64,000 bases of DNA from a virus: IMG/VR virus record IMGVR_UViG_3300028844_004984. One strand, 5' to 3'. Below, piece by piece: positions 13,233 to 56,600 of this stretch; the first letter of the stretch is position 1, and each line of letters begins with the position of its first letter. The notes below the pieces were generated by a model that saw nothing but the letters and a program-made list of their open reading frames with translations, did not search any database and was not told the origin of the DNA. The position numbers and the translations under genes were made by a program.

Positions 13233-14015
13233 ATGGCAATTGATTTAAACGCTATCCGAAACCGTTTGGACAGTCTACAAACGAAAACTACAAAGACTGA
13301 TAATTTATGGAAGCCCAAACCAGGCAAGCAGCAGGTAAGAATCGTACCTTATGTACACAATCCATCAAATCCTTTTATTGAACTATTTTTCCACTACAAC
13401 TTTGGTGGTAAAAATATTCTATCACCACAAACACATGGTGAGGCAGACCCACTTATGGAGTTCGCTGACCAATTGAAATCAACTGGTGATAGAAACGATT
13501 GGAATCTTTCAAAACAACTTACTCCTAAAATGAGAACGTATGTTCCCGTTATTGTAAGAGGTGAAGAATCTGAAGGTGTTAAATTTTGGGGATTCGGTAA
13601 GACTGTGTATCAGGAGTTGCTGGCATTCTTTGCTGATCCTGACTATGGTGATTTGACCGACCCGACCAATGGTAGGGATGTAACTGTTGAGTTCAAAACC
13701 GCTAAAGAGTTAGGTAAGAACTATCCTGAAACTTACATCAGAGTTAAACCAAACCAAACAGCCATCACAGAAGATAAGAATGTTTTGGAATTGGTTAAAG
13801 ACCAGATTGAACTTCCAGGTATGTTTAAAAAATATTCCTACGATGAGATGAAAGGTTTGTTGGAGAAGTGGTTGGAAACTGGACAGGTAGCAGATTCTTC
13901 AGAAGAAGAAGAAACTCAACCAACGCAAACTACTCAAAGTGATGAACCAACTGCAGTATCAAATGCAACTACTGCTGATGTGAAAGACGCATTCGAAGAT
14001 TTATTTAATAGCTAA
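13233..14015 (+). CDS. Single-stranded DNA-binding protein (gp32-like)
   Basis: 'LWKPKPGKQQVRIVP...GVKFWGFGKTVYQELL...DLTDPTNGRDV' plus an acidic tail ending 'FEDLFNS'. Confidence 0.85.
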   Translation: MAIDLNAIRNRLDSLQTKTTKTDNLWKPKPGKQQVRIVPYVHNPSNPFIELFFHYNFGGKNILSPQTHGEADPLMEFADQLKSTGDRNDWNLSKQLTPKMRTYVPVIVRGEESEGVKFWGFGKTVYQELLAFFADPDYGDLTDPTNGRDVTVEFKTAKELGKNYPETYIRVKPNQTAITEDKNVLELVKDQIELPGMFKKYSYDEMKGLLEKWLETGQVADSSEEEETQPTQTTQSDEPTAVSNATTADVKDAFEDLFNS

Positions 14016-15151: not shown

Positions 15152-16172
15152 CTACAGAGAAATGCTAAATAGCTTATCTAATACATCAAGTGGTGATGTT
15201 AACGATAAGGTTATGATTGTAGATGGATTGAATTTGTTCATCAGATGTTTTGGAGCAGTTCCAACTCTGAATGATGATGGAGAGCATGTCGGAGGGGTAA
15301 CAGGTTGTCTGTTATCCCTCGGCGCTCTTATTCGTAAAAACAAACCAACGAGAGTTTTGGTGGTGTTTGATGGTAAGGGTGGTTCGCATCGTAGAAAAAA
15401 GATGTATAAAGGATACAAAGAAGGTAGGACTGGATTAACAAAGGTAAATAGATTGGTTGGGTATGAAGATTTAGAAGACCAAGCAGAATCTATGAAAAAG
15501 AACTTTAATATGTTAATCAAATACTTAGAGTTCTTACCCGTTGATTTGTGTTACATTGATTACATCGAAGCAGATGATATTATGGCCTATGCCGCCAGAC
15601 ATATATTTAAAAAAGAAGTTATGATAATTTCCTCTGATAAAGATTTCTTACAATTGGTGGATGATAGAATATCAGTATATCTACCAACTAAAAAGAAACT
15701 TATGCACAAAGAGGATGTAAAAGAGTTATATGGAGTTCCATCAAAGAACTTAGTATATTATAGAATTTTTGATGGTGATAAATCCGATAATATTCCTGGC
15801 GTAAGGGGCATCGGACCAAAAACACTAATAAACAAATTAGATTTCCTTCAATCGGATGGATTAACATTAGATACCTTATTTGAAAGGGTATCTCAATTGG
15901 ATGATGAAAAACTGAAAAACAAAATATTGGAACATACCGATACTTTGAAATTAAATTACGATTTAATGCAGTTATCAGAACCAATAATGGGTTCAGCGAT
16001 TACATCAAATGTACGAAATATCATTGATACACCAATCAACGGGTTAAATTCTTTTGGATTCAAAAAAGAGTTTATGGTTGATAAACTTTACACTGCGTTT
16101 AAGAATGTAGAAACGTGGTTGGTAAATACTTGGGGTGATTTGGATAGGTATTCAAAACAAACCAAAAAATAA
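15132..16172 (+). CDS. 5'-3' exonuclease / flap endonuclease (T4 RNase H-like)
   Basis: 'IVDGLNL', 'VFDGKGGS..RK..Y..YK', 'EADD', 'SSDKDFLQL', 'GDKSDNIPGVRGIGPKT'. Confidence 0.95.
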   Translation: MKDTKSNYREMLNSLSNTSSGDVNDKVMIVDGLNLFIRCFGAVPTLNDDGEHVGGVTGCLLSLGALIRKNKPTRVLVVFDGKGGSHRRKKMYKGYKEGRTGLTKVNRLVGYEDLEDQAESMKKNFNMLIKYLEFLPVDLCYIDYIEADDIMAYAARHIFKKEVMIISSDKDFLQLVDDRISVYLPTKKKLMHKEDVKELYGVPSKNLVYYRIFDGDKSDNIPGVRGIGPKTLINKLDFLQSDGLTLDTLFERVSQLDDEKLKNKILEHTDTLKLNYDLMQLSEPIMGSAITSNVRNIIDTPINGLNSFGFKKEFMVDKLYTAFKNVETWLVNTWGDLDRYSKQTKK

Positions 16173-16204
16173 TTTGGTAAATACAATAATAATTCGTATA
16201 TTTA
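16173..16204 (+). promoter_or_regulatory. sigmaA-type promoter for the helicase
   Basis: TTTG-N20-TATATTTA. ATG starts 5 nt after its last base. Confidence 0.7.
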
Positions 16205-16208
16205 ATCT

Positions 16209-17567
16209 ATGGATAAACTTGGAAATAAGTTTGGAACAAGCTTTCAGATAAAGATTATATCAGCACTATTATCCGATAGGATATTTTTACAAACGGTGTA
16301 CGATATACTCAAACCTGAGATGTTCGATTCTGAGGCAAATGAGTGGCTTGTAACCAAAACGTTATCACACTTTGATGTATACTCAACGTTACCAACATTA
16401 GATGTATTTAAAAACGAAGTAGATAGGGTTGAGAGGGATGTTCTTAAACAATCTATCGTAGATAACCTAAAGCAAGTTTGGAATCAATTAGAATCTGATG
16501 ATTTAAATTACGTTAAAGAGCAAACCTTAGAGTTCTGTAAGAATCAAACATTTAAGAGTGCTATCTTAGAATCGGTTGGACTGTTAGAAGAAGGGAAGTT
16601 TGATGTAATAAAATCTAAGATTGATTCCGCTATGAAAGCGGGGCAGGATACCGATATTGGACACGAATATAAGGAGAATATCATTGAAAGGTATGAATCT
16701 ACAGTTAGAGATGTAATCTCTTGTGGATGGGATGTGATTGATGAATTGGTAGATGGTGGGTTTGGTAAAGGTGAACTTATTATGTTCGCAGCACCACCGG
16801 GTATTGGTAAATCTTGGGCATTGGTAAATGTTGGAATGGCTGCTGCTAAAAAAGGTAAGACTGTAGTTCACTACACATTGGAGTTGAATGAGGGATACGT
16901 GGGTCAGAGATACGATGCAGTATTAACTGGAACTGCTGTACCTAACCTTAAATTTAATATCGATGATGTACGAACTCAAGTGGAAGGGCTGAGTGGTGAT
17001 ATCATTGTGAAACATTGGCCTACTAAATCTGCTGGATTGAATACTATGAGAGCATCATTAGATAAACTGAAGTTGCAAGGTAAGAATCCTGATGTGATTA
17101 TAGTAGATTACGCTGATTTGTTAAAGGGTAATAGTAGAAAAGAACGACACGAAGAGTTAGAAGAGATTGTAGAGGGATTGAGAGGCATCGCGGGTGAATA
17201 TGAAGTTCCATTATTTACAGCATCTCAAATCAATCGTAGTGGTGCTAATGATGATGTTATTACTGGTACTTCTATAGCTGGCTCATTCTCAAAATTGATG
17301 ACTGCAGATTTTGTAGTTTCATTGAGTAGAAAAATTGAGGATAAGTTAGCTGGAACAGGCAGATGGCACGTTATCAAAAACCGATTTGGACCAGATGGTA
17401 TGACTTTACCTTCAAAAGCTAATATGAGTAATGGTAGAATCAATATATATTCCGATGATTCCATTGATGGTAAACAAGCACAAAGTGATATGTCAAAGGG
17501 GGAGAGTTTGGTAAGAAAGAATTTGTTACAAAAATATAATGATATGAAGGGGGATATTGACTTCTAA
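16209..17567 (+). CDS. Replicative DNA helicase (DnaB/gp41 family)
   Basis: 'APPGIGKS', 'YTLEL', 'IIVDYADLL', 'TASQINR', 'KNRFGPDG'. Confidence 0.95.
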   Translation: MDKLGNKFGTSFQIKIISALLSDRIFLQTVYDILKPEMFDSEANEWLVTKTLSHFDVYSTLPTLDVFKNEVDRVERDVLKQSIVDNLKQVWNQLESDDLNYVKEQTLEFCKNQTFKSAILESVGLLEEGKFDVIKSKIDSAMKAGQDTDIGHEYKENIIERYESTVRDVISCGWDVIDELVDGGFGKGELIMFAAPPGIGKSWALVNVGMAAAKKGKTVVHYTLELNEGYVGQRYDAVLTGTAVPNLKFNIDDVRTQVEGLSGDIIVKHWPTKSAGLNTMRASLDKLKLQGKNPDVIIVDYADLLKGNSRKERHEELEEIVEGLRGIAGEYEVPLFTASQINRSGANDDVITGTSIAGSFSKLMTADFVVSLSRKIEDKLAGTGRWHVIKNRFGPDGMTLPSKANMSNGRINIYSDDSIDGKQAQSDMSKGESLVRKNLLQKYNDMKGDIDF

Positions 17568-17623: not shown

Positions 17624-18619
17624 ATGGCACAATTATTTACAGAAAGAATCGCATTTAAACCATTTGAATACCCAACCTACTACACCGAAGGGTGGTTGAA
17701 ACAAGCACAAGCATTTTGGTTACATACAGAAATCCCAATGCAGGGTGATTTAAAAGATTGGAATGAAAATCTAAATGAATCAGAAAAGAACTTGGTTGGT
17801 AATATCCTATTGGGGTTTGCACAAACTGAATGTGCCGTATCTGATTATTGGACAACAATGGTGACCAAATGGTTTCCTAAGCATGAAATCAAACAAATGG
17901 CGATGATGTTTGGTTCACAAGAAACAATACACGCCACAGCTTACTCATATCTAAACGAATCATTGGGTTTAGAAGATTTTGAGGCTTTCCTACACGAACC
18001 TGCAATTGCAGAAAAATTTGAATTCCTAACCGCTACTTCGGCAGATTGGACTCACGAGGATTTACAGAAAAATCCTATTGCGAGAAAAGAAGTAGCCCGT
18101 TCATTAGCGATATTCTCAGCATTTGCAGAAGGTGTATCTCTATATAGTAGTTTTGCAGTCCTGTATTCCTTTCAGATGAGAAATCTTCTGAAAGGAATCG
18201 GGCAGCAAATGAAATGGAGTGTAAGAGATGAATCGTTACATTCCAAAATGGGGTGTGAATTATTCAGAGAAATGTGTAATGAATATCCTGAACTTCACAG
18301 TGAAGTTAAAGATGATGTTCATCAGGCAGCAACATATATGGTAGAAATGGAACATAAGTTCATTGATATGATATTTGAAATGGGTGATTTAGAGAATCTC
18401 AAATCTAAAGACCTAAAAAACTTTATCTCAAAGCGGGGAAATGAAAAGTTAAAAGAATTGGGATACGATACAACCTTTGAGTACAACAAAAAATCAGCAG
18501 AAGAGTTAGATTGGTTCTATCATCTTACTGGTGGTACTACACATACTGACTTCTTCGCAGTAAGACCTACTGATTACTCTAAGGCGAATGAAGGTGAAGA
18601 TTTTAATGATATTTGGTAA
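17624..18619 (+). CDS. nrdB: Ribonucleotide reductase class Ia beta subunit
   Basis: 'QETIHATAYS', 'EGVSLYSSF', 'RDESLH', 'DFFAVRPTDYSK'. Confidence 0.95.
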   Translation: MAQLFTERIAFKPFEYPTYYTEGWLKQAQAFWLHTEIPMQGDLKDWNENLNESEKNLVGNILLGFAQTECAVSDYWTTMVTKWFPKHEIKQMAMMFGSQETIHATAYSYLNESLGLEDFEAFLHEPAIAEKFEFLTATSADWTHEDLQKNPIARKEVARSLAIFSAFAEGVSLYSSFAVLYSFQMRNLLKGIGQQMKWSVRDESLHSKMGCELFREMCNEYPELHSEVKDDVHQAATYMVEMEHKFIDMIFEMGDLENLKSKDLKNFISKRGNEKLKELGYDTTFEYNKKSAEELDWFYHLTGGTTHTDFFAVRPTDYSKANEGEDFNDIW

Positions 18620-21112: not shown

Positions 21113-21316
21113 ATGGCCCTAAGAGGAGAATCCCACCCGGCACATAAACTTACTGAGGAGCAAGTAAACACTATCAGAAAACTATGGAAGATTGGGCATA
21201 GGAATGTTAGGGTTTTAGCAAGAAATCATAGCGTATCACCTGCGAATATTCGTAGAATTGTTAGGAATGAAACTTGGACACATTTGTTAGTGGGTGAGTT
21301 TGATAAATACCAATAA
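21113..21316 (+). CDS. Small HTH DNA-binding protein (stand-alone HNH homing-endonuclease-type C-terminal domain)
   Basis: 'RGESHPAHKLTEEQV..IR...LAR.HSVS..NIRRIVRNETW'; no nuclease domain. Confidence 0.65.
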   Translation: MALRGESHPAHKLTEEQVNTIRKLWKIGHRNVRVLARNHSVSPANIRRIVRNETWTHLLVGEFDKYQ

Positions 21317-22074
21317 TGAAGGAAGAGGGAAAGAACTATTGTGATGTATCAAAATTATCAATCCGACCGATTTCTAAATCGGTAGCAAAGGGTATCATTA
21401 TCAACAATCATTATAGTGGGTTGTGGACAAAGGTATCATACGCATTGGGTTTGTTCGTTGAGGATGGTTCACATCAGTTTTTTGATTCTACAGATAAGTT
21501 GATTGGGGTTGCGTGTTATGGCGACCCCATTGGTAGATTGACTGGGCAATCCATATCGGAAACGTTAGATAGGACTGAGGTTTTAGAATTAGTTCGATTG
21601 TTCGTTTTTGATGGGTATGGTTCAAATATCGAAAGTTGGTTCTTATCACAAACATTTGATTGGCTGAGAACAAACGTTTCAAAGATAAAAGCACTCATAT
21701 CCTACTCAGACCCAAAAGAAGGGCACGCTGGGACAATCTATCAAGCAACAAATTGGATTTATCAAGGTAACAAACTTAGATTCAATGATAGTTGGAGTTT
21801 TAAGTTTGAAGAAGATGGAAGATGGATACATGGTAAAACCATATTTCCACAATACAGAACAAACGACCCTAAGAAGATACAAGAGCAGGTAAATAAACCT
21901 TTTTGGATTCGAAAAGAACCAAGAAAACATAGATACGTTTACATATTAGCTAGGGGCGGTGAGCGTAGGAAACTACTGAAGAATTTGAAACACCCAACAT
22001 TTCCATATCCAAAGGGAAGTGAAGATGTTGAGATGGAAGTACATAAATTACAACCAATTGAAAGAAACGGATAA
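21316..22074 (+). CDS. Mom-like GNAT DNA-modification protein, paralog 1
   Basis: 'NHYSG', 'LELVRLF...NIESWFLS', 'ISYSDPKEGHAGTIYQATNWIYQG', 'KHRYVY' match the Mu Mom family pattern. Confidence 0.8.
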   Translation: MKEEGKNYCDVSKLSIRPISKSVAKGIIINNHYSGLWTKVSYALGLFVEDGSHQFFDSTDKLIGVACYGDPIGRLTGQSISETLDRTEVLELVRLFVFDGYGSNIESWFLSQTFDWLRTNVSKIKALISYSDPKEGHAGTIYQATNWIYQGNKLRFNDSWSFKFEEDGRWIHGKTIFPQYRTNDPKKIQEQVNKPFWIRKEPRKHRYVYILARGGERRKLLKNLKHPTFPYPKGSEDVEMEVHKLQPIERNG

Positions 22075-22858
22075 AATATATTGTGATGTATCCAAAGTGC
22101 ATATAGCACCAATCGCCAAATCGATTGCTAAGGATATCATCGTAAAGAAACACTACACTCACGCGTGGACTGCGTGTAGATATGCATTGGGCATCTACTA
22201 TAAAACTGATGGTGATTCATTTCAGTTTGGAGATGATAAACTCATTGGTTGCGCAATATATGGATTCCCAGTTGGAGCAAGAGCAGCAACCTCTGTATGT
22301 GAGGGATTAACTAAGGATAACGCATTGGAGTTGACCAGATTGTACATCGATGATGGGTATGGTTCGAATATCGAATCATATGCGATGGGACAAACATTCA
22401 AATGGTTGAAAGAAAACGATAAGAACATTAAGTTGTTGATATCGTATGCCGATGCGGGACAGGAACACTTAGGTAAGATTTATCAGGCAACTAATTGGAT
22501 TTATCAAGGGTTATCAACCGACATCGCACTAATGCCAAACTATGGTATCTCACTAACGAAAGACCCGTACAATTGGATTCATAGTAGAACGGTATATTCA
22601 CTTTGGGGTAGTTCAAATTTAGACCACCTTAAAAACGAAATTGGTAAAGAGGGGCATAGTGAATTTTGGAGGAGAATGGAGCCACCAAAACACAGATACA
22701 TCCAACTATTACCACAAAACAAAAAAGAGAAGAAAGATTTGATTAAACGGTTGAAGCATGAAATCAAACCATATCCAAAGAATACGGATGATTTTAATAC
22801 AGAGGTTGTGAATCATAAAACAACTTATGTAGCTGAGAGTACCGAAAGTTTTTGGTGA
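22058..22858 (+). CDS. Mom-like GNAT DNA-modification protein, paralog 2
   Basis: 'HYTH', 'LELTRLY..NIESY', 'ISYADAGQEHLGKIYQATNWIYQG', 'KHRYI'. TTG start chosen by alignment with paralog 1 (MKETDKIYCDVSK vs MKEEGKNYCDVSK). Confidence 0.8.
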   Translation: MKETDKIYCDVSKVHIAPIAKSIAKDIIVKKHYTHAWTACRYALGIYYKTDGDSFQFGDDKLIGCAIYGFPVGARAATSVCEGLTKDNALELTRLYIDDGYGSNIESYAMGQTFKWLKENDKNIKLLISYADAGQEHLGKIYQATNWIYQGLSTDIALMPNYGISLTKDPYNWIHSRTVYSLWGSSNLDHLKNEIGKEGHSEFWRRMEPPKHRYIQLLPQNKKEKKDLIKRLKHEIKPYPKNTDDFNTEVVNHKTTYVAESTESFW

Positions 22859-23349
22859 TGAATAAAGTGTTAGTTCTAAATTCAGATTACACCCCATTGA
22901 ACGTAACAAATATGCGGCGTGGATTCATTCTTGTGATGAAAGGCAAGGCTGAAATTGTAAAAGAGGATGTGAACAAAATTGTAACTACGATTGGAGAGTT
23001 CGCTAAACCAATAATCATACGATTACTCAATTATATCGGATATCGGAATATGGGTATAAAGGTAAATCGTAAACGGATTATGAAGCGTGATGGTTTTGAG
23101 TGTGGATATTGTGGTTCGAAAAAGAATCTTACAATCGACCATATCATTCCTAAATCTCGTGGTGGTGGTAACACTTGGGATAATTTGGTGACTTGTTGTA
23201 GTAGATGTAACACAATCAAAGATGATAGGACTCCCAAAGAAGCAGATATGGTATTGAGAGTTAAACCACATCAACCATCTATATTTTCATCGGTAATTTC
23301 AGATGAAGTGGAAACTGAGTGGATTTTGTACAAAAAAAGTTTCCAATAA
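22858..23349 (+). CDS. HNH endonuclease (McrA-like)
   Basis: 'RDGFECGYCG...TIDHIIPKSRGG..WDNLVTCCSRCN..K'. Confidence 0.9.
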   Translation: MNKVLVLNSDYTPLNVTNMRRGFILVMKGKAEIVKEDVNKIVTTIGEFAKPIIIRLLNYIGYRNMGIKVNRKRIMKRDGFECGYCGSKKNLTIDHIIPKSRGGGNTWDNLVTCCSRCNTIKDDRTPKEADMVLRVKPHQPSIFSSVISDEVETEWILYKKSFQ

Positions 23350-23350
23350 A

Positions 23351-23382
23351 TTTGGTAGATTGAAAAACATTCCTTATATTAG
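23351..23382 (+). promoter_or_regulatory. sigmaA-type promoter for the GT-B gene
   Basis: TTTG-N20-TATATTAG. Confidence 0.7.
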
Positions 23383-23412
23383 TAGTATAAGAGATAAAAT
23401 GTATGTACCCGT

Positions 23413-24546
23413 ATGAACTTTTGGGATAGTGTAGATTATAACAATGCTAGAAAGGTGTTGGTGATACCTAATATCACTAACTCTTCTAATATTGAAAAAG
23501 ATTCGTTTATTGATGTGATACATAATCATATCAAAGGACTGGAGAAGTATGGTGAGTACTATTGGCATGTTTTAGTACCAACTGGAAATGTTACGAAGAA
23601 ACTAAACTTACCAAATGTGAAACAACATCAGATTGATATTCCAGGTGATATGATGAACCAACGTTCGTTCCCATCTGATAAGTTGATGAAACTTCTAAAG
23701 GATATCGATTATGATGTAATCTATTCACACCTGCCCGATTGGCCTCAAGTCGGTAGATACAAAAACGATATCAACACTAAAATAGTTGGGTATTGCCATT
23801 GGTGGGAAATGAAGTCCTGTAATGGTGTAGACCGTAGACCTGGTAAAGCAAAGTGGTTGTGGTTACCCATCGAACTATTAGGTATATCTCAGATGGAAAC
23901 CTGTTACTTAAATACACAAGACCAGAAGAATAGGGTGTTGGAAGAGGCGAGAGAAACATTCAATGAAGAGTTTGTTCAGAAGTTGGATGATATTCTCACT
24001 GTTTGGAACTTAGGATTGGAAGAATCCAAAATAGTATCCGAACCAAAATCAGAAAAGGAAAAGGTGATTGTATTCAACCACCGAGCAGCTGCATACAAGG
24101 GGTATCCTAAGTTTATGGAGTTGATGGAAGAATATCGTAAACAGCGACAGGATTTCAAAGTTTGGATTCCGCAATTAAATGGTAAACCACCATATGGGTG
24201 GGTAGATACTACCAAAGTACCAAAGCATGAGTACTATAAGAGATTGCAGGATTGTACCGTCGGTGTACAGATGAGGCAAACGAATTATGGTTGGAGCGTG
24301 AGTGGTACTGATTGTATGATGAATGGAACTCCAATGATTTGGCAGGAATCCGATTGTTATCACGAAATCGACCCGAATGGTATGTTCTTCAAATACAAAA
24401 AAGAATTCTTTGAGTATTTGGATAAGATGTTAGATGATGAACCATTCCGAAAAGAGCAAGAGTTAAAATCAGTAGAGAGGGCAAACGAGCTATCTAAGAA
24501 TGAGGGTAAAATGCTTGGAGAACTACACAAAAAGTTGTATATTTAA
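23413..24546 (+). CDS. GT-B fold glycosyltransferase, candidate DNA glycosyltransferase
   Basis: 'YDVIYSHLP', 'VFNHR..YKGY..F', 'GWSVSGTDCMMNGTPMI' (GT4-like signature). Lies immediately upstream of PolB. Confidence 0.7.
   Translation: MNFWDSVDYNNARKVLVIPNITNSSNIEKDSFIDVIHNHIKGLEKYGEYYWHVLVPTGNVTKKLNLPNVKQHQIDIPGDMMNQRSFPSDKLMKLLKDIDYDVIYSHLPDWPQVGRYKNDINTKIVGYCHWWEMKSCNGVDRRPGKAKWLWLPIELLGISQMETCYLNTQDQKNRVLEEARETFNEEFVQKLDDILTVWNLGLEESKIVSEPKSEKEKVIVFNHRAAAYKGYPKFMELMEEYRKQRQDFKVWIPQLNGKPPYGWVDTTKVPKHEYYKRLQDCTVGVQMRQTNYGWSVSGTDCMMNGTPMIWQESDCYHEIDPNGMFFKYKKEFFEYLDKMLDDEPFRKEQELKSVERANELSKNEGKMLGELHKKLYI
24514..24545 (+). promoter_or_regulatory. sigmaA-type promoter for PolB (inside the GT 3' end)
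   Basis: CTTG-N20-TATATTTA. ATG starts 5 nt after its last base. Confidence 0.6.
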
Positions 24547-24549
24547 GGT

Positions 24550-27066
24550 ATGTATCAAAACGCTTATTACGAAAAAGAGGGTGGTATCATCCATTGCTGG
24601 GATGATGAAAAAGGTTACTTTACCAAAAAGTATCGTAACTATGGTTATGTTAGAGATGGTAATGGTTCTTACGAATCAATCTATGGGGAACGGTTGAAGA
24701 AGATTAACTTTTGGAAAAACGAAGATAATCTAAAACTTTATGAATCGGATGTAAATGAAATGACCCGTTTCTTAATCGATGAATATGGTGATTCAGACGA
24801 GGTATCCACTGGTCATACTGTACTAACCTTTGATATTGAGGTAGAGATGAATAGTGGACTGCCCGATACAGATAAAGCAGAGAATACTATGACTTCTGTA
24901 GCATTCCACGATTCAGCAACAAACGATTATTATGCTTATGTACTAAGTGAGGGTGAAGAGATAAACAAAACTATCAAAGGGGCTAAAGTCCGTTCCTTTC
25001 GTAGTGAAGAAGATATGTTGATAGCATTTGTAAATGCTTGGGAAGAGATTTCACCGACTATCATTACGGGATGGAACATTGACTTCTTTGATGTTACATA
25101 TTTGTACAATCGATTAAAGCGGGTACTTGGGACATCAACAGCAAATAGGCTATCCCCAATCAGAAAAGTACATTGGAACAAATATCGTAAACGTTACATC
25201 ATCGCAGGTGTATCTGCATTGGATTACATCGCATTATTTAAGAACTTTACATATACGGAATATCCCAACTATCGCTTGGATACTATCGCTAAATTAGAAT
25301 TAGGTAGAGGGAAGATTGAGTACGAAGGAAACTTAGACCAATTATTCAGAGATGATATTGAGAAGTTTGTTGAATATAACTTAGTTGATGTTGAGTTGGT
25401 GGTAGATATGGATAAGAAACTACAATTCATCGATTTGGCTAGAGCAATATGCCATGCGGGTCATGTGTTCTATGAAGATTTCTTATTCTCATCGAAATGG
25501 TTAGAGGGAGCAATTCTCACATTCCTTAGACGGAGTGGTAGGGTAGCTCCGAACAAACCACAGCGGATGTTTAAAAATGCTGATGGTTCTGATGGGGAAG
25601 GTAAGTTTATAGGTGCATATGTAAAACAACCAAAGCCCGGCCTTTACAAATGGGTATACGATTTGGATTTAACATCACTATACCCATCAATCATTATGAG
25701 TATCAATATCTCACCTGAAACTAAGATTGGTAAGGTGAAGAACTACTCCGCTGAAGAATCTATGAAGGGAAATATTGAATCATATTCTATTATAGATAAT
25801 AATGGTAGTGAATCAAAGCCCGTATCAAAAGAACACTTTACCAACTTTATTGAACAACAAAAGCTATCAATAGCATCAAATGGTGTGTTGTATTCACAGA
25901 ATAGGGTTGGTATCATACCTGAGATTCTTAACGTGTGGTTTGATAAGAGAGTAGAGTACAAAGACCTGATGAAAAAATATGGTAAAGAGGGTAATGATGA
26001 ACTTTATAAGTTCTACTCTCAGCGCCAGTTGGTACAAAAAATTATGTTGAATTCCCTTTACGGAGTATTGGGATTACCATCATTCAGATTCTACGATGTT
26101 GATAACGCAGAAGCAGTAACACTTACAGGTCAGACTGTAATTAAAACAACTGAGATGATTGCCAATCAATACTATAGTAAGAACATTGGTGAAACAAAAG
26201 ATTACAACATCTATGTTGATACTGATTCTGTATTCTATGAAGCAGCACCATTGGTAAAGGCTAGGAATCCTAATATTGATGTAACATCTGATAAAGAAAT
26301 GATTCCAGCTATTCTATCAGTTGCTAAAGAGGTTGAGGACCATATCAATAAAGTATATGATTCAATGGCATTGAAAATGTTCAATATTAATTCACATAGA
26401 TTTGATATTAAGCAAGAAACTATCGCTAAGGGTGGGTTTTGGGTATCTAAGAAAAGATACGCTCAATGGATTATCAACGATAACACTGTAGATTGTGATA
26501 AGTTGGATGTGAAAGGATTGGATGTGAAACGTTCATCATTCCCAACTTACTTCAAAGAAGTGATGAGTACTGTGTTGATGGATATCCTAAAGGATGAGAA
26601 CAAAGATAAAATTGATGAGTATATTCTTAGGAAGAAAGATGAGATGAAAACTACCAACTTTATCGATATAGCAAAGAATTCAGCAGTTAAAGGTATGAGT
26701 AAGTATACATTTAAGAATCAAGCACTGGGTGAGTTTATGAAAGGAACACCAGCGCATGTTAAAGCAGCACTTACTTACAATCAACTATTGAAATATTATA
26801 ATGCAGCATTTAAATTTGAACCAATGAAAGATGGTGATAAGATTAAGTGGGTGTATTTGAAACCTAATCCATTAGGATTAGACTCCGTTGGGTTGACGGG
26901 ATATAACGACCCGAAAGAGATTTTGGATTTGGTAGAACAGCATATAGATTATGAGCTAATTTGGACAAAAGAATTAGAGAATAAGTTAGATGATTTCTAC
27001 AAAGCAATGGGGTGGGAAAAGCCAAATCCGAATCTAGCAAAAGCATCACAATTTTTTGGATTTTAA
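24550..27066 (+). CDS. DNA polymerase family B (gp43-like)
   Basis: Exonuclease 'FDIEV', 'GWNIDFFD', 'YNLVD'; polymerase 'DLTSLYPS', 'KIMLNSLYG', 'YVDTDS', 'KKRY'; C-terminal 'SQFFGF'. Confidence 0.97.
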   Translation: MYQNAYYEKEGGIIHCWDDEKGYFTKKYRNYGYVRDGNGSYESIYGERLKKINFWKNEDNLKLYESDVNEMTRFLIDEYGDSDEVSTGHTVLTFDIEVEMNSGLPDTDKAENTMTSVAFHDSATNDYYAYVLSEGEEINKTIKGAKVRSFRSEEDMLIAFVNAWEEISPTIITGWNIDFFDVTYLYNRLKRVLGTSTANRLSPIRKVHWNKYRKRYIIAGVSALDYIALFKNFTYTEYPNYRLDTIAKLELGRGKIEYEGNLDQLFRDDIEKFVEYNLVDVELVVDMDKKLQFIDLARAICHAGHVFYEDFLFSSKWLEGAILTFLRRSGRVAPNKPQRMFKNADGSDGEGKFIGAYVKQPKPGLYKWVYDLDLTSLYPSIIMSINISPETKIGKVKNYSAEESMKGNIESYSIIDNNGSESKPVSKEHFTNFIEQQKLSIASNGVLYSQNRVGIIPEILNVWFDKRVEYKDLMKKYGKEGNDELYKFYSQRQLVQKIMLNSLYGVLGLPSFRFYDVDNAEAVTLTGQTVIKTTEMIANQYYSKNIGETKDYNIYVDTDSVFYEAAPLVKARNPNIDVTSDKEMIPAILSVAKEVEDHINKVYDSMALKMFNINSHRFDIKQETIAKGGFWVSKKRYAQWIINDNTVDCDKLDVKGLDVKRSSFPTYFKEVMSTVLMDILKDENKDKIDEYILRKKDEMKTTNFIDIAKNSAVKGMSKYTFKNQALGEFMKGTPAHVKAALTYNQLLKYYNAAFKFEPMKDGDKIKWVYLKPNPLGLDSVGLTGYNDPKEILDLVEQHIDYELIWTKELENKLDDFYKAMGWEKPNPNLAKASQFFGF

Positions 27067-27098
27067 TTTGGATATTCCAAAATAAATTCGTATATTTA
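27067..27098 (+). promoter_or_regulatory. sigmaA-type promoter with overlapping inverted repeat TTTGGA-TAT-TCCAAA
   Basis: TTTG-N20-TATATTTA. Confidence 0.7.
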
Positions 27099-27129
27099 AG
27101 ACCAATAAACAATAAATAATTAATTTCAT

Positions 27130-27825
27130 ATGAAAAAAGCAAGTATTGAAAGTTTCATTAACCGATACAATCTCGGTGGTGAAGTAGAATCGGTAAAGAT
27201 TACATCTACTGATTCGGAGATGAAGGTAAGTTTTATCTCAGATGATAAAACTTTGTTAGGAGAGGTAACCTCTAAAGAGGGTGATTTTCCCAATGGTGAG
27301 TTTGGTGTTTACACAACTTCTCAGTTAAAAGCACTTTTGGGTGTATTAGAATCTAATGTGGAGGTTGACTCTACTGAATCTTACATCAAGTTTTCAGATA
27401 AGGGTACATCGGTTAATTATATGCTGGCAGACCTTTCTGTGATTCCAGTTGTTCCTGATTTGAAGCAAGTACCACCTTTCAACTCAGAAGTTACTTTGAA
27501 CGATGAGTTTACATCTAAGTTTATCAAATCAAAAGGAGCGCTGAGTGAATCAGATACATTTACATTTAGTTGTATTGGTGATAAGGGTGAGGTTGTTTTA
27601 GGATATTCCACAATTAACACTAACCGAATCTCAATCTCAGTAGAATGTAAGTGTGATGGGGATGTACAACCAATCTCATTTTCAGCTAAGTATCTGAAAG
27701 AAATCCTAAATGCTAACAGAGCCTCTAAATCTGCTACATTAAAAATTTCATCGCAGGGGCTTTCTTACATTGAATTTGAAACAGATACCATCACATCAAA
27801 ATACTATTTGGTAGAGATTAAATAA
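27130..27825 (+). CDS. Sliding clamp (gp45/PCNA-like)
   Basis: 231 aa, beta-rich, 'FGVY..SQL...L', C-terminal 'KYYLVE'. Lies between PolB and the clamp loader. Confidence 0.8.
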   Translation: MKKASIESFINRYNLGGEVESVKITSTDSEMKVSFISDDKTLLGEVTSKEGDFPNGEFGVYTTSQLKALLGVLESNVEVDSTESYIKFSDKGTSVNYMLADLSVIPVVPDLKQVPPFNSEVTLNDEFTSKFIKSKGALSESDTFTFSCIGDKGEVVLGYSTINTNRISISVECKCDGDVQPISFSAKYLKEILNANRASKSATLKISSQGLSYIEFETDTITSKYYLVEIK

Positions 27826-29039
27826 TGAGTATGAACTTTTGGGATACAGAACCAGCTAAACCAATCTTTGACTTTGAAACTCAAAAGAGGGAGTTAATCG
27901 AAAATATGGATTATCTATCTTCGATGACAGTTGAAGAACAAACACTTTACAAAAAGTGGGTTGAGTTACAAGAGCCCTCTATGATTAGGGATAAATCGCA
28001 CATTGCGGAACTATACCCAACACAGTGGGCTCCGGCTGATATTAACAATTTGGAACAAACCATTTCGGAGATTGAAGCGTTAGAACCTTATGTTGAGATT
28101 GTAGAAGATGCTAAGGATTCTACTAAATGGGCATATCTCAGAAGGATGATTCATACAATGGGGTTTACCGCCAATCCTGGTCGAAACGTTAAGATTAATG
28201 TTAAAGATAGGGTTACTGGAAAGCTTTTAGGGCAGATATCACTAGCATCTGATGTAACCTCTATGAAGGTTAGAGATGACTATATTGGGTGGAGTAAAGA
28301 TAATAAGTTCGTAGATAAAAAACTCAACCATACTACAATAGCATCTACAATTGTGTGTACTCAGCCACTTGGATTTAACTTCTTAGGTGGTAAGTTAGTT
28401 GCTATGATGACCACTGTGCCTGAAGTGAGGGAGTTTTGGAAAGATAAATATGGCCAGACCCTTATAGCAGTTGGGACTACATCTCTGTATGGAATTCACT
28501 CTCAGTACAATGGTATTCCTCACTTCAAAACATTAGGTGAATCGGCCGGAAAGATTTCAATAAAACCAGATGATAAGTACTACGAACCTTGGCATCAATG
28601 GATTAAAGAAAACAGAGCAGATTGGTACGAAACTGCAATTACGAATGAAAGAATCCGTAATGGTAAAAGTATGGGTGTAGCAAGTGGGCCTGTAAGTGGT
28701 ATCAAACAAAAGATTCTTGGGCAGATATTCAAAGAATGTGGTATCAAACAATCAGATTATCATCATGGGTTTAAAAGAGGTGTATATCTCGCTATGATGT
28801 ATGAGAATGGGCCGGAGTTCCTTAAAGGTGAAATTGGTGAAGATGAGCTAAAGATGAAGCAGAAGTTCGAAGAGGGTGTGGATTACATCAGTAGATGGTG
28901 GAAGAAAAAGGCAATAAAACGATACACCAAACTACACTCTGAAGGTAGATTGAAGCCAGAGCATTTGTTCTATATCGATGCGATTGGTATGAGTTGGGAA
29001 GATATGAAAAGTAAGTATTTGAAAGAAGTTGGTAGATAA
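27825..29039 (+). CDS. DruA/DUF4338-like protein
   Basis: 'PGRN...DRVTGKLLG.ISLASD...RDDYIGW', 'FNFLGGKLVAM', 'TTSLYG..SQYN', 'LGESAG', 'HGFKRGVY' match the Druantia DruA family pattern. Confidence 0.75.
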   Translation: MSMNFWDTEPAKPIFDFETQKRELIENMDYLSSMTVEEQTLYKKWVELQEPSMIRDKSHIAELYPTQWAPADINNLEQTISEIEALEPYVEIVEDAKDSTKWAYLRRMIHTMGFTANPGRNVKINVKDRVTGKLLGQISLASDVTSMKVRDDYIGWSKDNKFVDKKLNHTTIASTIVCTQPLGFNFLGGKLVAMMTTVPEVREFWKDKYGQTLIAVGTTSLYGIHSQYNGIPHFKTLGESAGKISIKPDDKYYEPWHQWIKENRADWYETAITNERIRNGKSMGVASGPVSGIKQKILGQIFKECGIKQSDYHHGFKRGVYLAMMYENGPEFLKGEIGEDELKMKQKFEEGVDYISRWWKKKAIKRYTKLHSEGRLKPEHLFYIDAIGMSWEDMKSKYLKEVGR

Positions 29040-29971
29040 TGAATAACACAGAAAACACACTTTGGGTTGAGAAGTACAGACCCGATACATTGGAAGGGTA
29101 TGTTGGAAACGAACATATCCTTGAGAAAGTAAAGATTTACATTGAGAATGAGGATGTACCTCACTTGCTACTCTATGGTGTGGCGGGTACTGGTAAGACT
29201 ACCCTCGCTAAAATCATTACCAATCAGATTGATTGTGATGTGATGTACATCAACGCTTCGGATGAAAACAACGTAGATACAGTTAGGGATAAGATTAGAG
29301 GATTCGCATCATCGATGGGATTCCGTAAGTGGAAAGTGATTATTTTGGATGAGAGCGATTACCTAACTCCGAACGCACAGGCGGCACTTCGTAATCTAAT
29401 GGAAACGTTCTCCAAAACAACACGATTCATTTTGACGTGTAACTATGTTGAAAAAATCATCGACCCAATTCAGAGTAGATGCCAAACGTTTGGTATTACA
29501 CCACCATCTAAGAAAGAGGTGGCGCTGCGTTTGAAAGAGATTTTGGATTCTGAGAATGTATCATATGAGATGCAGGATTTAGCTATTTTGGTAAATAGTG
29601 GATATCCTGATATTCGTAGAGTTCTGAACGCAGGACAACGGCAGGTTATAAAGGGTGAATTGAAGATTGATAAAACATCAACGATTCAAGCGAATTATAT
29701 GGATGAGGTATTGAATGTACTTAAATCTGATGGTAATGTAAAAGAGGTGTTCCTAAAGAGTAGGCAGATTATCGCAGATTCAAAAGTTAAGGACTTCACA
29801 CCATTCTACAGATTTTTGTACGATAATGTAGATGATTTCGCAGCTGGAAAAGTGGGTAACACAATAATCAAAATTGCAGATGCTCAATACAAAGATGCAT
29901 CAGTAGTGGATAAAGAAATCAACATCGTAGCGATGTTATTGGAAATTTTAATTGATATCAAAGGAAAATAA
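29039..29971 (+). CDS. Clamp loader AAA+ subunit (gp44/RFC-like)
   Basis: 'LWVEKYRP', 'GVAGTGKTT', 'INASDE', 'ILDESD', 'IQSRC'. Confidence 0.95.
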   Translation: MNNTENTLWVEKYRPDTLEGYVGNEHILEKVKIYIENEDVPHLLLYGVAGTGKTTLAKIITNQIDCDVMYINASDENNVDTVRDKIRGFASSMGFRKWKVIILDESDYLTPNAQAALRNLMETFSKTTRFILTCNYVEKIIDPIQSRCQTFGITPPSKKEVALRLKEILDSENVSYEMQDLAILVNSGYPDIRRVLNAGQRQVIKGELKIDKTSTIQANYMDEVLNVLKSDGNVKEVFLKSRQIIADSKVKDFTPFYRFLYDNVDDFAAGKVGNTIIKIADAQYKDASVVDKEINIVAMLLEILIDIKGK

Positions 29972-29973
29972 TT

Positions 29974-30243
29974 ATGGCAAAAGGAAAGGGAAAATCAAAA
30001 ATAGTTGGAATGGGACAACCAACACAACAAGCACCACAAATGCAGTTAGACCCAACAAAGTTACCAACGGTACATTGTGAGAATTGTGATTCTATTTTTT
30101 GGGAAGAAGTGACAATGTTCAAAGAAGTTCCAGCGGTTCAATCACCGAATGGGCAGAAATCAATGTTACCAATTCCTGTAGTTAGATGTGCAGAGTGTGG
30201 GCATGTATCGGAAAAGTTTTTACCTAAAGAGTTATTACCTTAA
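29974..30243 (+). CDS. Zn-ribbon protein
   Basis: CENC...CAECGH. Confidence 0.7.
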   Translation: MAKGKGKSKIVGMGQPTQQAPQMQLDPTKLPTVHCENCDSIFWEEVTMFKEVPAVQSPNGQKSMLPIPVVRCAECGHVSEKFLPKELLP

Positions 30244-30698
30244 TGGCAAAAAAGAAAAGTGATAACACTGTAAAGGCTAAGAGTATCTTCCAACATCTTA
30301 GTGGTATAAAGGAGAAAAAAGATTCTTGGGAATCTCTATCTGAGATGGATAAGAAATCATTTACTCCATTTATCATAAATCGTTGGTTAAGTATGAACTT
30401 GGACTTACTACCTATCATAAATGTACTACAGAAGTACACAATCGGCTTGTTATCCGCCAGAGATGTATACAAAGTGTATTTGGATTTTCTACCAAAGCAA
30501 AAAACATTTGATAAGTACATCAAAGGTAAGAAAGATGGTAAGTACAACAAAGAGTTACTACAACACCTATCAACTTGGTATGGTGTATCACATAGAGAAG
30601 TAATTGATTATTTGGATATACTACCAAAGGATGAGGTGATTTCGATTCTAATGAAGTATGGTATGACCGATAAGGAAGCAAAAAAGTTATTGAAATGA
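30243..30698 (+). CDS. Clamp loader small subunit (gp62-like)
   Basis: 'FTPFIINRWLSM' and 'WYGVSHREVIDYL' gp62-like pattern, downstream of gp44. Confidence 0.8.
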   Translation: MAKKKSDNTVKAKSIFQHLSGIKEKKDSWESLSEMDKKSFTPFIINRWLSMNLDLLPIINVLQKYTIGLLSARDVYKVYLDFLPKQKTFDKYIKGKKDGKYNKELLQHLSTWYGVSHREVIDYLDILPKDEVISILMKYGMTDKEAKKLLK

Positions 30699-37457: not shown

Positions 37458-38299
37458 TGAGCATGAAAAGAAATATTGGGATTATTGGGCAGGGTTTTGT
37501 AGGTAACGCTATTTATCAGAAGTTTAAGAATTACTTTGAGGTATCAACATTTGATTTAGATAAATCTAAGAGAAACACAGATACATTAGAATCTGTGGTT
37601 AAAAATTCAGATGTTGTGTTTGTGTGTGTACCTACACCAATGCGTAGAATTGATGGTACGTGTGATATTAGCATAGTTGAATCAGTTCTAACCGAAATCA
37701 ATAATGTGGGTAAGGATGTGATTACCGTAATCAAATCAACAATTCCACCAACTACAACTGAAATGTTTAATGAAACGTTTTCTAACTTAACGGTAGTTTT
37801 CAATCCTGAGTTTTTAACTGAGGCAAACGCAGTTAGTGATTTTGAAAACCAATCTAAGATTATTTTAGGAGGACCGAAAAAAGGAACTACACTACTGAAG
37901 CAAATTTATCGATTAGTATTTCCAACAACACCCATCATTAAGACGGGCTCGACTCATGCAGAGATGGTAAAGTACCTAACAAATTCATTTTTAGCAACAA
38001 AAGTATCATTCGCAAACGAGATGTATCAGATTTGTGATAAACTTGGTTTGGATTATGATAAAGTTGTTGAGTATTCAACTTACGATGATAGATTAGGAAA
38101 ATCCCATTGGGCGGTTCCTGGACCAGATGGGGATTTTGGATATGGTGGGCATTGTTTTCCAAAAGATGTTAAAGCATTAATTCATTTAGCAGAAGAATTA
38201 GAATTGTATCCAACTATGTTAAGAGCTACTGATAAGAAAAACAACGTGGTTCGGAAAAATAGGGATTGGGAACAAATGGAAGGTAGAGCGGTATCATAA
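37457..38299 (+). CDS. ugd: UDP-glucose/GDP-mannose dehydrogenase (lacks C-terminal domain)
   Basis: 'GQGFVG', 'CVPTP', 'KSTIPP', 'NPEFL', 'AEMVKY..N..LATKVSFANE', 'GYGGHCFPKD'. Confidence 0.9.
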   Translation: MSMKRNIGIIGQGFVGNAIYQKFKNYFEVSTFDLDKSKRNTDTLESVVKNSDVVFVCVPTPMRRIDGTCDISIVESVLTEINNVGKDVITVIKSTIPPTTTEMFNETFSNLTVVFNPEFLTEANAVSDFENQSKIILGGPKKGTTLLKQIYRLVFPTTPIIKTGSTHAEMVKYLTNSFLATKVSFANEMYQICDKLGLDYDKVVEYSTYDDRLGKSHWAVPGPDGDFGYGGHCFPKDVKALIHLAEELELYPTMLRATDKKNNVVRKNRDWEQMEGRAVS

Positions 38300-39138
38300 T
38301 GCAGTTTTGGAGAACATACAATAATAGAGTACATCCCGTAGGTGAGGTTGCACAATTGGGGTTTCCATTATCCGAACCATCGTACATACCAGATGAGTAT
38401 TTGGATGGTCAAAACTTTGTGATTCTACGAACGTGTTTCGGATTGGGTGATTGGGGTATCATATCAGCATTCCCACGTAAATTGAAAGAGAAGTATCCCG
38501 ATTGTAAAGTTTGGATACCATCTCCGAAGTTACTGAGAGAAATGTTTGGGGGATTAGCACATAATTGGTCTGCTTGGGATGACCCATTTCAGGTAGTACA
38601 TTCTATCTTTGATAACAATCCATATGTAGATGGGTTTATTGATTCTTTTGAGGGGGAAGTGTTCAACGACCACTATCGTATTACAGATGGTGGAGATACT
38701 CCCCTAATGGAAGAATTGTTGAGGTTTTGGCAATTTGATGAGTTTGAGGATATCGAACCCGAACTATACTTTAGCGATGAAGAAAAATCACTTGGTGACC
38801 GAATCATCAAAGAACATTGTGATGGGGATTTCGGAACTCTTCTAATCTCAAATAGATTTGATGGCGATGGGGTTGATAAAATCCAACAAAAAATTAATGA
38901 GTATGACCTAACTATGTTCTACTGGACTAAATCTACTGATGTGGGGTTGGATTTCAAAAAAGCATTGGATATGAGACACATCAACACTCGTATTCAGTTA
39001 TACATCAAAACAAAGGCAAAGTTTAATGTAGGTAACCAAACTGGGGTGAATGATACCATCGCAAACTATTCACCAACCTATACAATTGCCAGACCTAATC
39101 TTGGGTCAAACTTGGTTAGAAGTGAGATTTATTTATGA
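38299..39138 (+). CDS. GT9 (heptosyltransferase)-like protein
   Basis: 'GLGDW.....R.LKEKYPD', 'FDNNPYVD', 'PELYFS.EE'. Confidence 0.6.
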   Translation: MQFWRTYNNRVHPVGEVAQLGFPLSEPSYIPDEYLDGQNFVILRTCFGLGDWGIISAFPRKLKEKYPDCKVWIPSPKLLREMFGGLAHNWSAWDDPFQVVHSIFDNNPYVDGFIDSFEGEVFNDHYRITDGGDTPLMEELLRFWQFDEFEDIEPELYFSDEEKSLGDRIIKEHCDGDFGTLLISNRFDGDGVDKIQQKINEYDLTMFYWTKSTDVGLDFKKALDMRHINTRIQLYIKTKAKFNVGNQTGVNDTIANYSPTYTIARPNLGSNLVRSEIYL

Positions 39139-53623: not shown

Positions 53624-56600
53624 ATGAAAAAATACATATTAGGTCTACTAATATCAATACCATATATTGTATTAGGTCAAAATTCGTGGGTAAATATTAC
53701 CCTGTTAACCGATAATTATCCAAGTGAAACGACTTGGAAAATAACACCTCCAGGTGGTTCGCCAATAATAGCAAGTAATGATACTAATATGATACCATTG
53801 ACTGTGTATCAACAGTATTTAGAAGTGGGTGGTGATATTGTTGTTGAGATTGAAGATTCCTTTGGGGATGGGTTAGATGCAACCGCATTTGGTGGCTCAA
53901 TAGGATATTTTCTTATTGAGAATTCATGCCAAGATACAATATTATTTGTAGAAGGTAACTTTGGTTCATTCTACACAGATACCTTAACTATCGCACCATG
54001 CGCACCACCAATTGGGGGATGTATAGACCCACTGGCAGTAAATTACGACCCAAACGCAACACTATCCGATAGCAGCTGTCTCTATGAAGTTGACTTCACA
54101 TTAAATATGAATTCGTATCCTGGCACTTTCACAACACCATATGTTGCTGGTACTTTTAATGGTTGGACTGACCAACACCCAATGACCGATGTGGATGGGG
54201 ATAATATATGGGAAGTAACAATCCCAATACCAAATGGACCACACCTTTGGAAATTTATGTTAGATAATTGGGTAGCTCAGGAATTACCCCCAAATGTACA
54301 AAATAACCCATTGGCGAGTTGTTTCGTATTAGACCAATTTGGATTTACAAACAGAGCGTTATTAGTTTTAGGGCCAACTACATTAGATGATTATTGTTGG
54401 GAAAGTTGCTACGATTGTGGTACTATTTTAGGATGTACCGACTCCACATCCAATGTATATAATCCGTGGGCTACAGATGATGATGGTTCTTGTGTATCAG
54501 CAGGTCCATCCGCTTGTGATACTGATGAGACATATATCCAAATAGTATTTACTCCCGATAACTACCCATCTGAGAGTGGGTATAAGGTGTATGATGACTT
54601 CGGATTATTGTTAGAATATCTGCCAGGTTCACTTAGTGGGTCAACTCCTGGCGTACCTATCACCGATTATGTGTGTGTTGATTCAAATGTATTGGTAGAC
54701 ATAGTTCTTGAAGATGTTTATGGAGATGGACTATGTGGTACTTGTTTTGGTGGTACGGTGAATGGTAATATTCAGGTGTTGGATTGTGATGGTAACGAAC
54801 TATACAACCTACAAGATACAATATTAGATGGTAACTTTGGATATCAGTTTACAACACCACAATTCAATACAGGTGATATTTGTTCAGGTGGTGGTACAAC
54901 CGATGTATATGGGTGTATGAATCCATTTTCTACAACATATGATTCTACTGCAACCGTTGATGATGGAAGTTGTGGCCCACTAAGAGTAGTAGGATGTACT
55001 GATACATCAGCATTTAACTATGACCCTAACGGAAATACAAGTGAGGTTATGACCGGAGACTACACCTTAGAAATCTTAGATGGTGCATCAAATGGTTGGG
55101 GTGGAACGTGGTTAGGAATTAAGCAAGGTGATTGGTTATCACCACAATATAAATTAGGACCAAACGATGGAAACTCATTAACTTTCAATGTTCCTCTGAA
55201 CATATATGAGCCAATCCAAATCTATTTGTTTACAACACCACAATCAGCAACCTCAATTGCACAGGTCGCTTACAACCTAACAGGACCTGAGGGTGATACA
55301 ATTTTAGATGTACCTTATTGGGGGGCACAATCATTACAATTCCCAATCGTTCAAACAACTACGACACAGCCAACTTTTGGTGATGTGTGTATTCCTACAA
55401 TTATTGGATGTACAGATACTAACTCTTTGAACTACGACCCACTCGCTAACACCGATGACGGTAATTGTGTTCAGATAGTGTATGGTTGTACAAACCCACT
55501 CGCATTTAACTATGATTCCAGCGCTAACACAGATGATGGTTCTTGCATCTCTGTAGTTGTTGGATGTATGGATTCTACGGCATACAATTTTGACCCGAAC
55601 GCAAACACACCGGGAGCGTGTATTCCAATTATCTACGGGTGTACAGACCCTAACTCATTCAACTACAACCCAAGCGCAAATACGGATGATAGCTCGTGTA
55701 TTCCAATTATCTACGGGTGTACAGATGTAACGTCGTTCAATTACGATTCAACGGCGAACACAGATGATGGTTCTTGTATCGCAAGAGTATATGGGTGTAC
55801 AGATACATCATCGTTTAACTACGACCCTCTTGCTAATACTGATAATGGTTCTTGTGTTGCCATTGTATTGGGATGTATGACACCAACATCAATCAACTAT
55901 GACCCACTTGCGAACGTAAACGATGGTTCTTGTATCCCAATCATATATGGTTGTACAGACTCGACTTCGTTCAACTATAACCCATTAGCTAATACGGATG
56001 ATAGCTCGTGTGTACCTATTGTGTTAGGGTGTACTACTCCGACCTCAATCAACTATGACCCACTCGCTAACACCGATGATGGTACTTGTATTCAACCAAT
56101 TTATGGATGTACGGACTCGACTTCGTTTAACTACAACCCATTGGCTAATACTGATAATGGCTCTTGTATACCCATCGTATTAGGGTGTACCACCCCAAGC
56201 TCCATTAATTACAATCCCTCAGCTAATACGGATGATGGGAGTTGTATTCCAATCATCTATGGGTGTACGGATTCGACCTCATTTAATTACAACCCATTGG
56301 CTAATACTGATAATGGTTCTTGTGTTGCCATTGTATTGGGATGTACAACACCTACTTCAATAAACTACAATCCGAATGCCAACACCGATGATGGTTCGTG
56401 TATTCCATTTATTTATGGATGTACTGATTCAACCTCATTTAATTACAATCCATTGGCTAATACGGATGATGGCAGTTGTGCTCCATTTATTTATGGATGT
56501 ACCGACCCCAATGCATTTAACTATGACCCTAATGCGAACACAAACCAAGTATCAGCAACTGATTTATCCAACCCATGCATTCCGATTGTATATGGTTGTA

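Follow-up and report, generated by a model that had tools for sequence, protein, structure and literature searches.

Conserved terminal aromatic motifs on predicted DNA-modifying enzymes of a phage with a T4-like replication module, candidate docking tags for its sliding clamp

Clamp-binding motifs at the extreme N-terminus are familiar from the eukaryotic proteins UNG2, DNA ligase I and MSH6, which carry PCNA-interacting protein (PIP) boxes there, and the PIP box of DNMT1 recruits a DNA modifier to PCNA. Phages offer related cases: the DNA polymerase gp43 of RB69 and T4 places a C-terminal PIP-like peptide on the sliding clamp gp45 (PDB 1b8h; PMC3012046), and T4 RNase H carries an N-terminal PIP motif (PMC3012046). 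Here we describe short aromatic motifs at the termini of several predicted DNA-modifying enzymes encoded in a 64,000-nucleotide stretch of viral DNA (hereafter the window; IMG/VR record IMGVR_UViG_3300028844_004984), which comes from a marine T4-like phage, is part of a 113-kb virus record (G000) and holds a T4-like replication module on its + strand. We consider it probable, though well short of assured, that these short linear motifs serve as docking tags by which the modifiers are tethered to the phage's own PCNA-type clamp, a reading for which sequence comparison gives good support.

The PIP peptide of the RB69 polymerase binds a hydrophobic pocket of gp45, in which two basic residues meet acidic groups (PMC3012046). 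The T4 alpha-glucosyltransferase is a modifier associated with a clamp; according to the account in PMC13216743, which cites Sommer et al. 2004, it co-purifies with gp45 and the beta-glucosyltransferase does not, and the association was confirmed by pull-down (PMC13216743). The Mom enzyme of phage Mu acts post-replicatively on double-stranded DNA, modifying adenine with Gly-tRNA (PMC13219725), and is a precedent in that double-stranded DNA is the substrate that a clamp encircles.

The locus in the window shares with RB69 and T4 gp43 a short terminal hydrophobic or aromatic motif, acidic residues, a flexible end of the family B DNA polymerase (PolB) and a trimeric clamp of the PCNA fold; it differs in that its PolB carries F-F-x-F, its modifiers carry F-W, and clamp docking is predicted from sequence. 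For comparison, T4 gp43 ends L-D-F-L-F-G and T4 gp55 ends with S-L-D-F-L-Y-E-A-N-D, while the M-S-L-F-K-D-D start of T4 gp62 is a resemblance only. As with the T4 alpha-glucosyltransferase, a phage DNA modifier of the GT-B type would be associated with the sliding clamp and is proposed to act during replication, but the termini of the T4 enzyme are unlike F-W-(D/E), and here one tag is common to several enzyme families; we know of no defined clamp tag mapped in the T4 enzyme. Like the motifs of T4 RNase H and of the eukaryotic proteins, some of the tags stand at the extreme N-terminus, but they have just one or two residues before the aromatic pair, unlike the canonical PIP box Q-x-x-h-x-x-a-a. 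Phage Mu has, to our knowledge, no clamp of its own. Two enzymes of the window, Mom1 and Mom2, belong to the same Pfam family as Mu Mom (PF25680; 8bv8) and a third has a predicted Mom fold; they differ from Mu Mom, for which PMC13219725 mentions no clamp link, in being known from sequence and model. Clamp docking of modifiers would thus have precedents by analogy, and a shared tag across several enzyme families would extend them.

The tags are found at the ends of four genes, all on the + strand. Mom paralog 2 (Mom2, 22019-22858; start codon uncertain) ends E-S-F-W and then stops (22844-22855), the GT-B-like glycosyltransferase (GT; 23413-24546) starts M-N-F-W-D (23413-23427), and PolB (24550-27066) ends S-Q-F-F-G-F (27046-27063), the presumed clamp-binding peptide; all three were named in the original prediction and are read in the sequence as it gave them. 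That prediction left two readings for the start of a DruA-like protein, with or without two extra residues. The motif itself is there: the open reading frame (ORF) opens at 27825 with M-S-M-N-F-W-D, but in every orthologue the first Met of the frame aligns with 27831, and therefore we place the start ATG at 27831 (gene 27831-29039) and the N-terminus at M-N-F-W-D (27831-27845). Also named was H-Q-F-F-D of Mom paralog 1 (Mom1, 21316-22074). The motif is present at 21472-21486 but is no terminal tag, since it forms residues 53-57, inside the Pfam Mom domain (residues 14-233), and Mom1 is a doubtful member of the set. This loop, S-H-Q-F-F-(N/D/G), is kept in 11/11 orthologue sequences, and the equivalent Mom2 loop is variable; as a separate observation, the S-H-Q-F-F of Mom1 resembles the S-Q-F-F of the PolB tail.

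Among the 70 + strand ORFs of the window, F-W falls within six residues of a terminus four times against 0.64 expected (P ~0.002), and F-(F/W) five times against 1.56 expected (P ~0.015), the expectation being taken from internal windows of the same proteins. The tags also lie outside the folds. AlphaFold2 models the DruA-like protein with high overall confidence (predicted local distance difference test, pLDDT, 92; predicted template-modelling score 0.87), and because pLDDT falls at its N-terminus (below 50 for residues 1-4, averaging 51 over residues 1-10), the tag is predicted to sit on a floppy, disordered end. In the GT the tag comes ahead of the first Rossmann strand of the fold, and that of Mom2 follows the end of the Pfam domain by about 25 residues, so that in all three proteins the motif occupies a terminal segment beyond the folded domain.

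We followed the tags through related metagenomic phages, at 31 loci found via the clamp and 78 further loci found via a DruA-like profile, and through database homologues. In 51 distinct DruA-like sequences (55-93% identity) from the clade that keeps the order PolB-clamp-DruA-loader, F and W are each present in 100% and are followed by D or E in 100%. Seven variants occur just before F (N, S, Q, E, K, D or no residue), and the downstream linker is variable. The motif is present in 118 of 120 close database relatives; at 40-50% identity many DruA-like proteins have x-F-F-(D/E) in their first dozen residues, and others lack the motif or carry N-terminal fusions. The family is large, with 2911 relatives at 90% clustering, and very abundant in marine data. 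One further group, a cyanophage-like clade with DruA-like M-A-T-P-I-E-F-V-E and PolB S-L-E-D-F-F-S (which recalls T4 S-L-D-F-L), was not counted, for the stretch runs into a conserved Q-W-x-x-W and could belong to the folded domain.

Mom2 is represented by 18 distinct tails, each of which closes with (N/S/K)-(F/Y)-W, the W being invariant, and positions -4 to -12 of these tails are Pro/Glu-rich and of high entropy. On an unrelated contig (L035), a Mom-like protein with only 25% identity ends N-F-W-E and adjoins a DruA-like gene that opens with a K-F-F-D motif. Upstream of PolB the relatives carry three interchangeable GT types, cassettes that look unrelated to one another: type A, that of the window (68-96% identity), has M-x(1-2)-F-W-(D/E) in 10/10 loci, two of which show a one-residue shift of the motif, and type B (447 aa) starts M-(N/S)-K-F-F-T-D. 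The PolB tail is (Q/K)-F-F-x-F in all orthologues of the clade, and F-F tails recur in PolB relatives of 47-48% identity. Outside the window, a Lys/Arg-rich basic protein of 101 aa (G000 94300-94605, equal to L119:2301-2606) ends K-D-F-W; of its 92 homologues, about 80 have a C-terminal x-(F/Y)-W, preceded by a Lys-rich linker that differs in length. The tags are invariant beside flanks that diverge, as is usual in clamp-binding short linear motifs, and, judged from these homologues, they are under strong selection; the conservation on which the original prediction staked its case is thus borne out in the DruA-like, Mom2 and type A GT sets.

Several observations point from the tags to the clamp. 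The cognate clamp is encoded in the same genome (27130-27825), and its PolB tail corresponds by position and type to the RB69/T4 gp43 tail, of which it is the homologue and whose PIP peptide is described in PMC3012046; by analogy, two aromatic residues with Asp or Glu behind them suit the description of the RB69 gp45 pocket. The gp44-like clamp loader of a sister subclade is extended at its N-terminus by 10-12 residues, acidic in character, that start M-(A/G/S)-F-F-E, M-F-I-E-Q or M-F-E-Y. The clamp is the known partner of such a loader. Another lineage (L030; clamp at 8001-8708, 37% identical) encodes a TGT/DpdA-like protein (6722-7990; PF01702, 30.6 bits) directly upstream of the clamp gene, and its C-terminus, F-F-K-L, is F-F-K-(F/L) in 119/120 homologues, the same pattern as the PolB tails of the window's clade. 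The type of modifier tag tracks the type of PolB tail across lineages: in L033, PolB S-K-F-F-D-F is paired with DruA-like G-S-F-F-D, and in L069/L122, PolB E-R-F-F occurs with two DruA-like paralogs, N-F-F-E and K-F-F-D, the clamp lying elsewhere on the contig (found in the L069 record).

On these grounds we infer the clamp as the partner, the PolB pocket as the site, and coupling to replication as the purpose. In the mechanism we propose, the N-terminal M-x-F-W-(D/E) of the DruA-like protein and the GT and the C-terminal x-F-W of Mom2 and the small basic protein would dock on the clamp, working as the PolB tail Q-F-F-G-F does. Because the clamp encircles newly made duplex DNA, docking would gather the tagged enzymes on the nascent strands, and modification would take place right behind the fork, before host nucleases act.

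A number of observations weigh against this proposal. The tags do not match the canonical PIP consensus Q-x-x-(L/I/M)-x-x-aromatic-aromatic, being an aromatic pair plus an acidic residue only (in the PolB tail, Q stands immediately before F-F), and with one or two residues ahead of F-W, an N-terminal tag is too short to hold the Q and the hydrophobic position of a PIP box. In the window's clade the modifiers have F-W and PolB has F-F-x-F, W being never replaced by F in the modifiers, and because of this difference the site or partner of the modifier tags could differ from that of PolB. GT type C carries no tag and opens at the first Rossmann strand; Mom1 lacks a terminal tag; and F-F-D-tagged DruA-like relatives occur on contigs with no visible clamp (L035, L036), which are short. 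Nor does a terminal aromatic tail by itself point to a clamp: acidic-aromatic tails are also found on the gp32-like single-stranded DNA-binding protein (SSB; F-E-D-L-F-N-S, 13233-14015), the DnaB-like helicase (D-I-D-F, 16209-17567) and the beta subunit of ribonucleotide reductase (RNR beta; D-F-N-D-I-W, 17624-18619), where they serve other pairings and are typical partner-binding tails of those families. The original prediction is supported in part: the resemblance between the tags and the PolB tail holds, and the loader and TGT-like tags of relatives strengthen it, but F-W is set against F-F-x-F, a common pocket is presumed, and one GT type does without a tag. A complex prediction of the clamp trimer with residues 1-45 of the DruA-like protein scored 0.00, below the mark, and, its controls not having been run, speaks neither for nor against docking.

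These difficulties give some weight to the alternative that the tags dock on another shared partner, be it PolB, the gp32-like SSB, the helicase, or one another in a multi-enzyme modification complex. W is strict in the modifiers and missing from all PolB tails, as would be expected if the two were recognized at distinct sites; tagged Mom-like and DruA-like genes stand together on L035, where no clamp is visible; and the SSB, helicase and RNR beta of this very genome end in aromatic-acidic tails that are known to bind other partners. We nevertheless regard such a partner as unlikely, as PolB-like tags occur on the clamp loader of sister phages and on the TGT-like enzyme adjoining a clamp gene, and tag type tracks PolB tail type across lineages. 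Clamps, moreover, are known fork hubs that accept many short terminal peptides, and SSBs usually present tails and do not receive them. It could also be that terminal F-W is an intrinsic element of each enzyme, serving as a DNA wedge, an autoinhibitory plug or a folding element, for example. For every tagged enzyme DNA is the known or predicted substrate, as such a role would have it, and a protein of unknown family in a sugar-metabolism cluster (38299-39138), which starts M-Q-F-W-R (M-P-L-F-W-R in its L030 homologue, 15375-16220), shows that an N-terminal F-W can be something else; in that protein the F-W is conserved and is followed by a basic, not an acidic, residue. We give the intrinsic role little credence: the tags are followed by an acidic residue and lie well away from the catalytic core, on an end modelled as disordered, they occur at either terminus, on unrelated folds and even on a small basic protein that is not an enzyme, and GT type C at the same locus is predicted to work without one.

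There remains the account in which the match is due to chance or to selection at the nucleotide level. It draws on an exact 18-nt string, G-T-A-T-G-A-A-C-T-T-T-T-G-G-G-A-T-A, that spans the GT and DruA-like start codons (23411-23428 and 27829-27846), ties for the longest non-tandem exact repeat within the window, and might be a regulatory or recombination element. We rejected this account of the shared start and hold it to be very improbable overall. The repeat is not kept as DNA in relatives: at position 2 the orthologues use AAT, AGT, GAT, CAA and other codons, the Asp is sometimes GAC, and the upstream DNA is unrelated, but F-W-(D/E) is kept. Because orthologues change codons and upstream DNA and yet keep the peptide, selection acts on the protein; besides, the C-terminal tags cannot be start-site signals, and the terminal enrichment given above argues against chance. 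The 18-nt identity in the window may be coincidence or a small gene-conversion tract. Having weighed these accounts, we keep docking on the clamp as the probable role of the tags.

The families that carry the tag are less unrelated than was originally supposed. A GT-B, two families of Mom-fold GNATs and a small basic protein do represent separate folds, but the DruA-like protein is not unrelated to Mom. Foldseek with its model gave no match at E <=0.001, and in a wider structural search the best PDB match was phage Mu Mom (8bv8_B; Z 10.1, root-mean-square deviation 3.6 over 164 aligned residues), ahead of generic GNATs at Z ~8.7 or below. With the DruA-like fold closest to Mu Mom, the phage would thus have three Mom-fold enzymes and a GT. 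The model gives a hint that the DruA family may transfer acyl or aminoacyl groups to DNA; a search of the literature on DruA and DUF4338 found nothing on function. The gene itself (PF14236, 78.8 bits, cut-off 27), a predicted Mom-fold GNAT acyltransferase, lies between the clamp and the clamp loader and lacks the Druantia helicase context.

The identities of the other genes are for the most part clear. Mom1 and Mom2 match PF25680 at E 1e-43 (148.5 bits) and E 7.8e-45 (153.5 bits), respectively, against a cut-off of 27.1; the GT has weak Glyco_transf_4 and Glycos_transf_1 matches under the Pfam cut-off; and PolB matches PF00136, PF03104 and phrog_262 (E 8e-191). The proposed docking hub, the clamp, matches phrog_223 (E 3.5e-12), with Pfam PCNA_C at 18.6 bits, under the cut-off. 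A profile search of PDB sequences gave marginal beta-clamp matches only (E 0.4), and the fold search settled its identity: the model (pLDDT 74) matches yeast PCNA with Foldseek E 4e-12 and a template-modelling score of 0.72, and has the two-domain PCNA fold. The clamp is syntenic with PolB and the clamp loader genes, gp44-like and gp62-like, which lie close by at 29039-30698; the gp44-like ATPase (29039-29971; phrog_168, E 2e-82) has no tag in the window. For the 101-aa F-W-tailed protein and the M-Q-F-W-R protein, no PHROG or Pfam match was found.

The full order on the + strand is RNR, thioredoxin, MazG-like, Mom1, Mom2, HNH, GT-B-like, PolB, clamp, DruA-like, gp44-like, a small zinc protein and gp62-like. 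Megablast of the region against isolated phages gave no match, and by PolB the nearest isolate is Microcystis phage Mel-JY01 (48%), which has the same operon order and no Mom, GT or DruA-like genes; because its syntenic operon lacks them, we interpret the modifiers as insertions into a polymerase-clamp-loader operon, a placement that we count in favour of docking on the clamp. The HNH endonuclease gene (22852-23349), between Mom2 and the GT, occurs in the window and in its two nearest relatives (L002, L025) but in no others, and is likely a mobile insertion. An intergenic motif of ~29 nt, T-T-G-G-A-T ... T-T-C-G-T-A-T-A-T-T, occurs upstream of gene blocks at window positions 8088, 13075, 16174, 20641, 27068 (immediately 5' of the clamp gene), 31563 and 61171, and is probably a phage promoter family. 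Elsewhere in the window, a 1170-aa protein (53624-57136) contains long arrays of 78-nt (26-aa) coding repeats and a 1016-aa protein (2099-5149) contains 45-nt repeats around 2300-3000; at 96390-97997 and 98541-99701 of G000 (L119) lie genes for a GroEL-type chaperonin (phrog_5725, E 1e-156) and for a SET-domain protein (PF00856, E 9e-8).

Extending the proposal beyond the window, we suggest, with rather more reserve than for clamp docking in the window and again from sequence, that a large group of marine T4-like phages may use a "tool-belt code", in which interchangeable aromatic tags on at least four unrelated modifier families plug into the clamp. These families may be Mom-type GNATs, DruA-type GNATs, GT-B enzymes and TGT/DpdA-like enzymes, perhaps together with the small basic protein, which by analogy with the T4 gp33/gp55 tails may be a clamp-tethered factor; by having two classes of tag, F-W and F-F-x-F, such a code would establish a hierarchy in which polymerase and clamp loader also take part.

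If clamp docking is correct, several steps of DNA hypermodification would be physically coupled to the replication fork through one portable peptide, and this would explain how new phage DNA gains immediate protection from host nucleases. The single case of the T4 alpha-glucosyltransferase and gp45 would be generalized to Mom-like, DruA-like and TGT-like enzymes, and the phage relatives of Druantia DruA would be given a suggested role, that of a Mom-fold acyltransferase acting on DNA. The tags would also provide a simple signature by which fork-associated enzymes and new DNA modifiers could be found in metagenomes from sequence alone.

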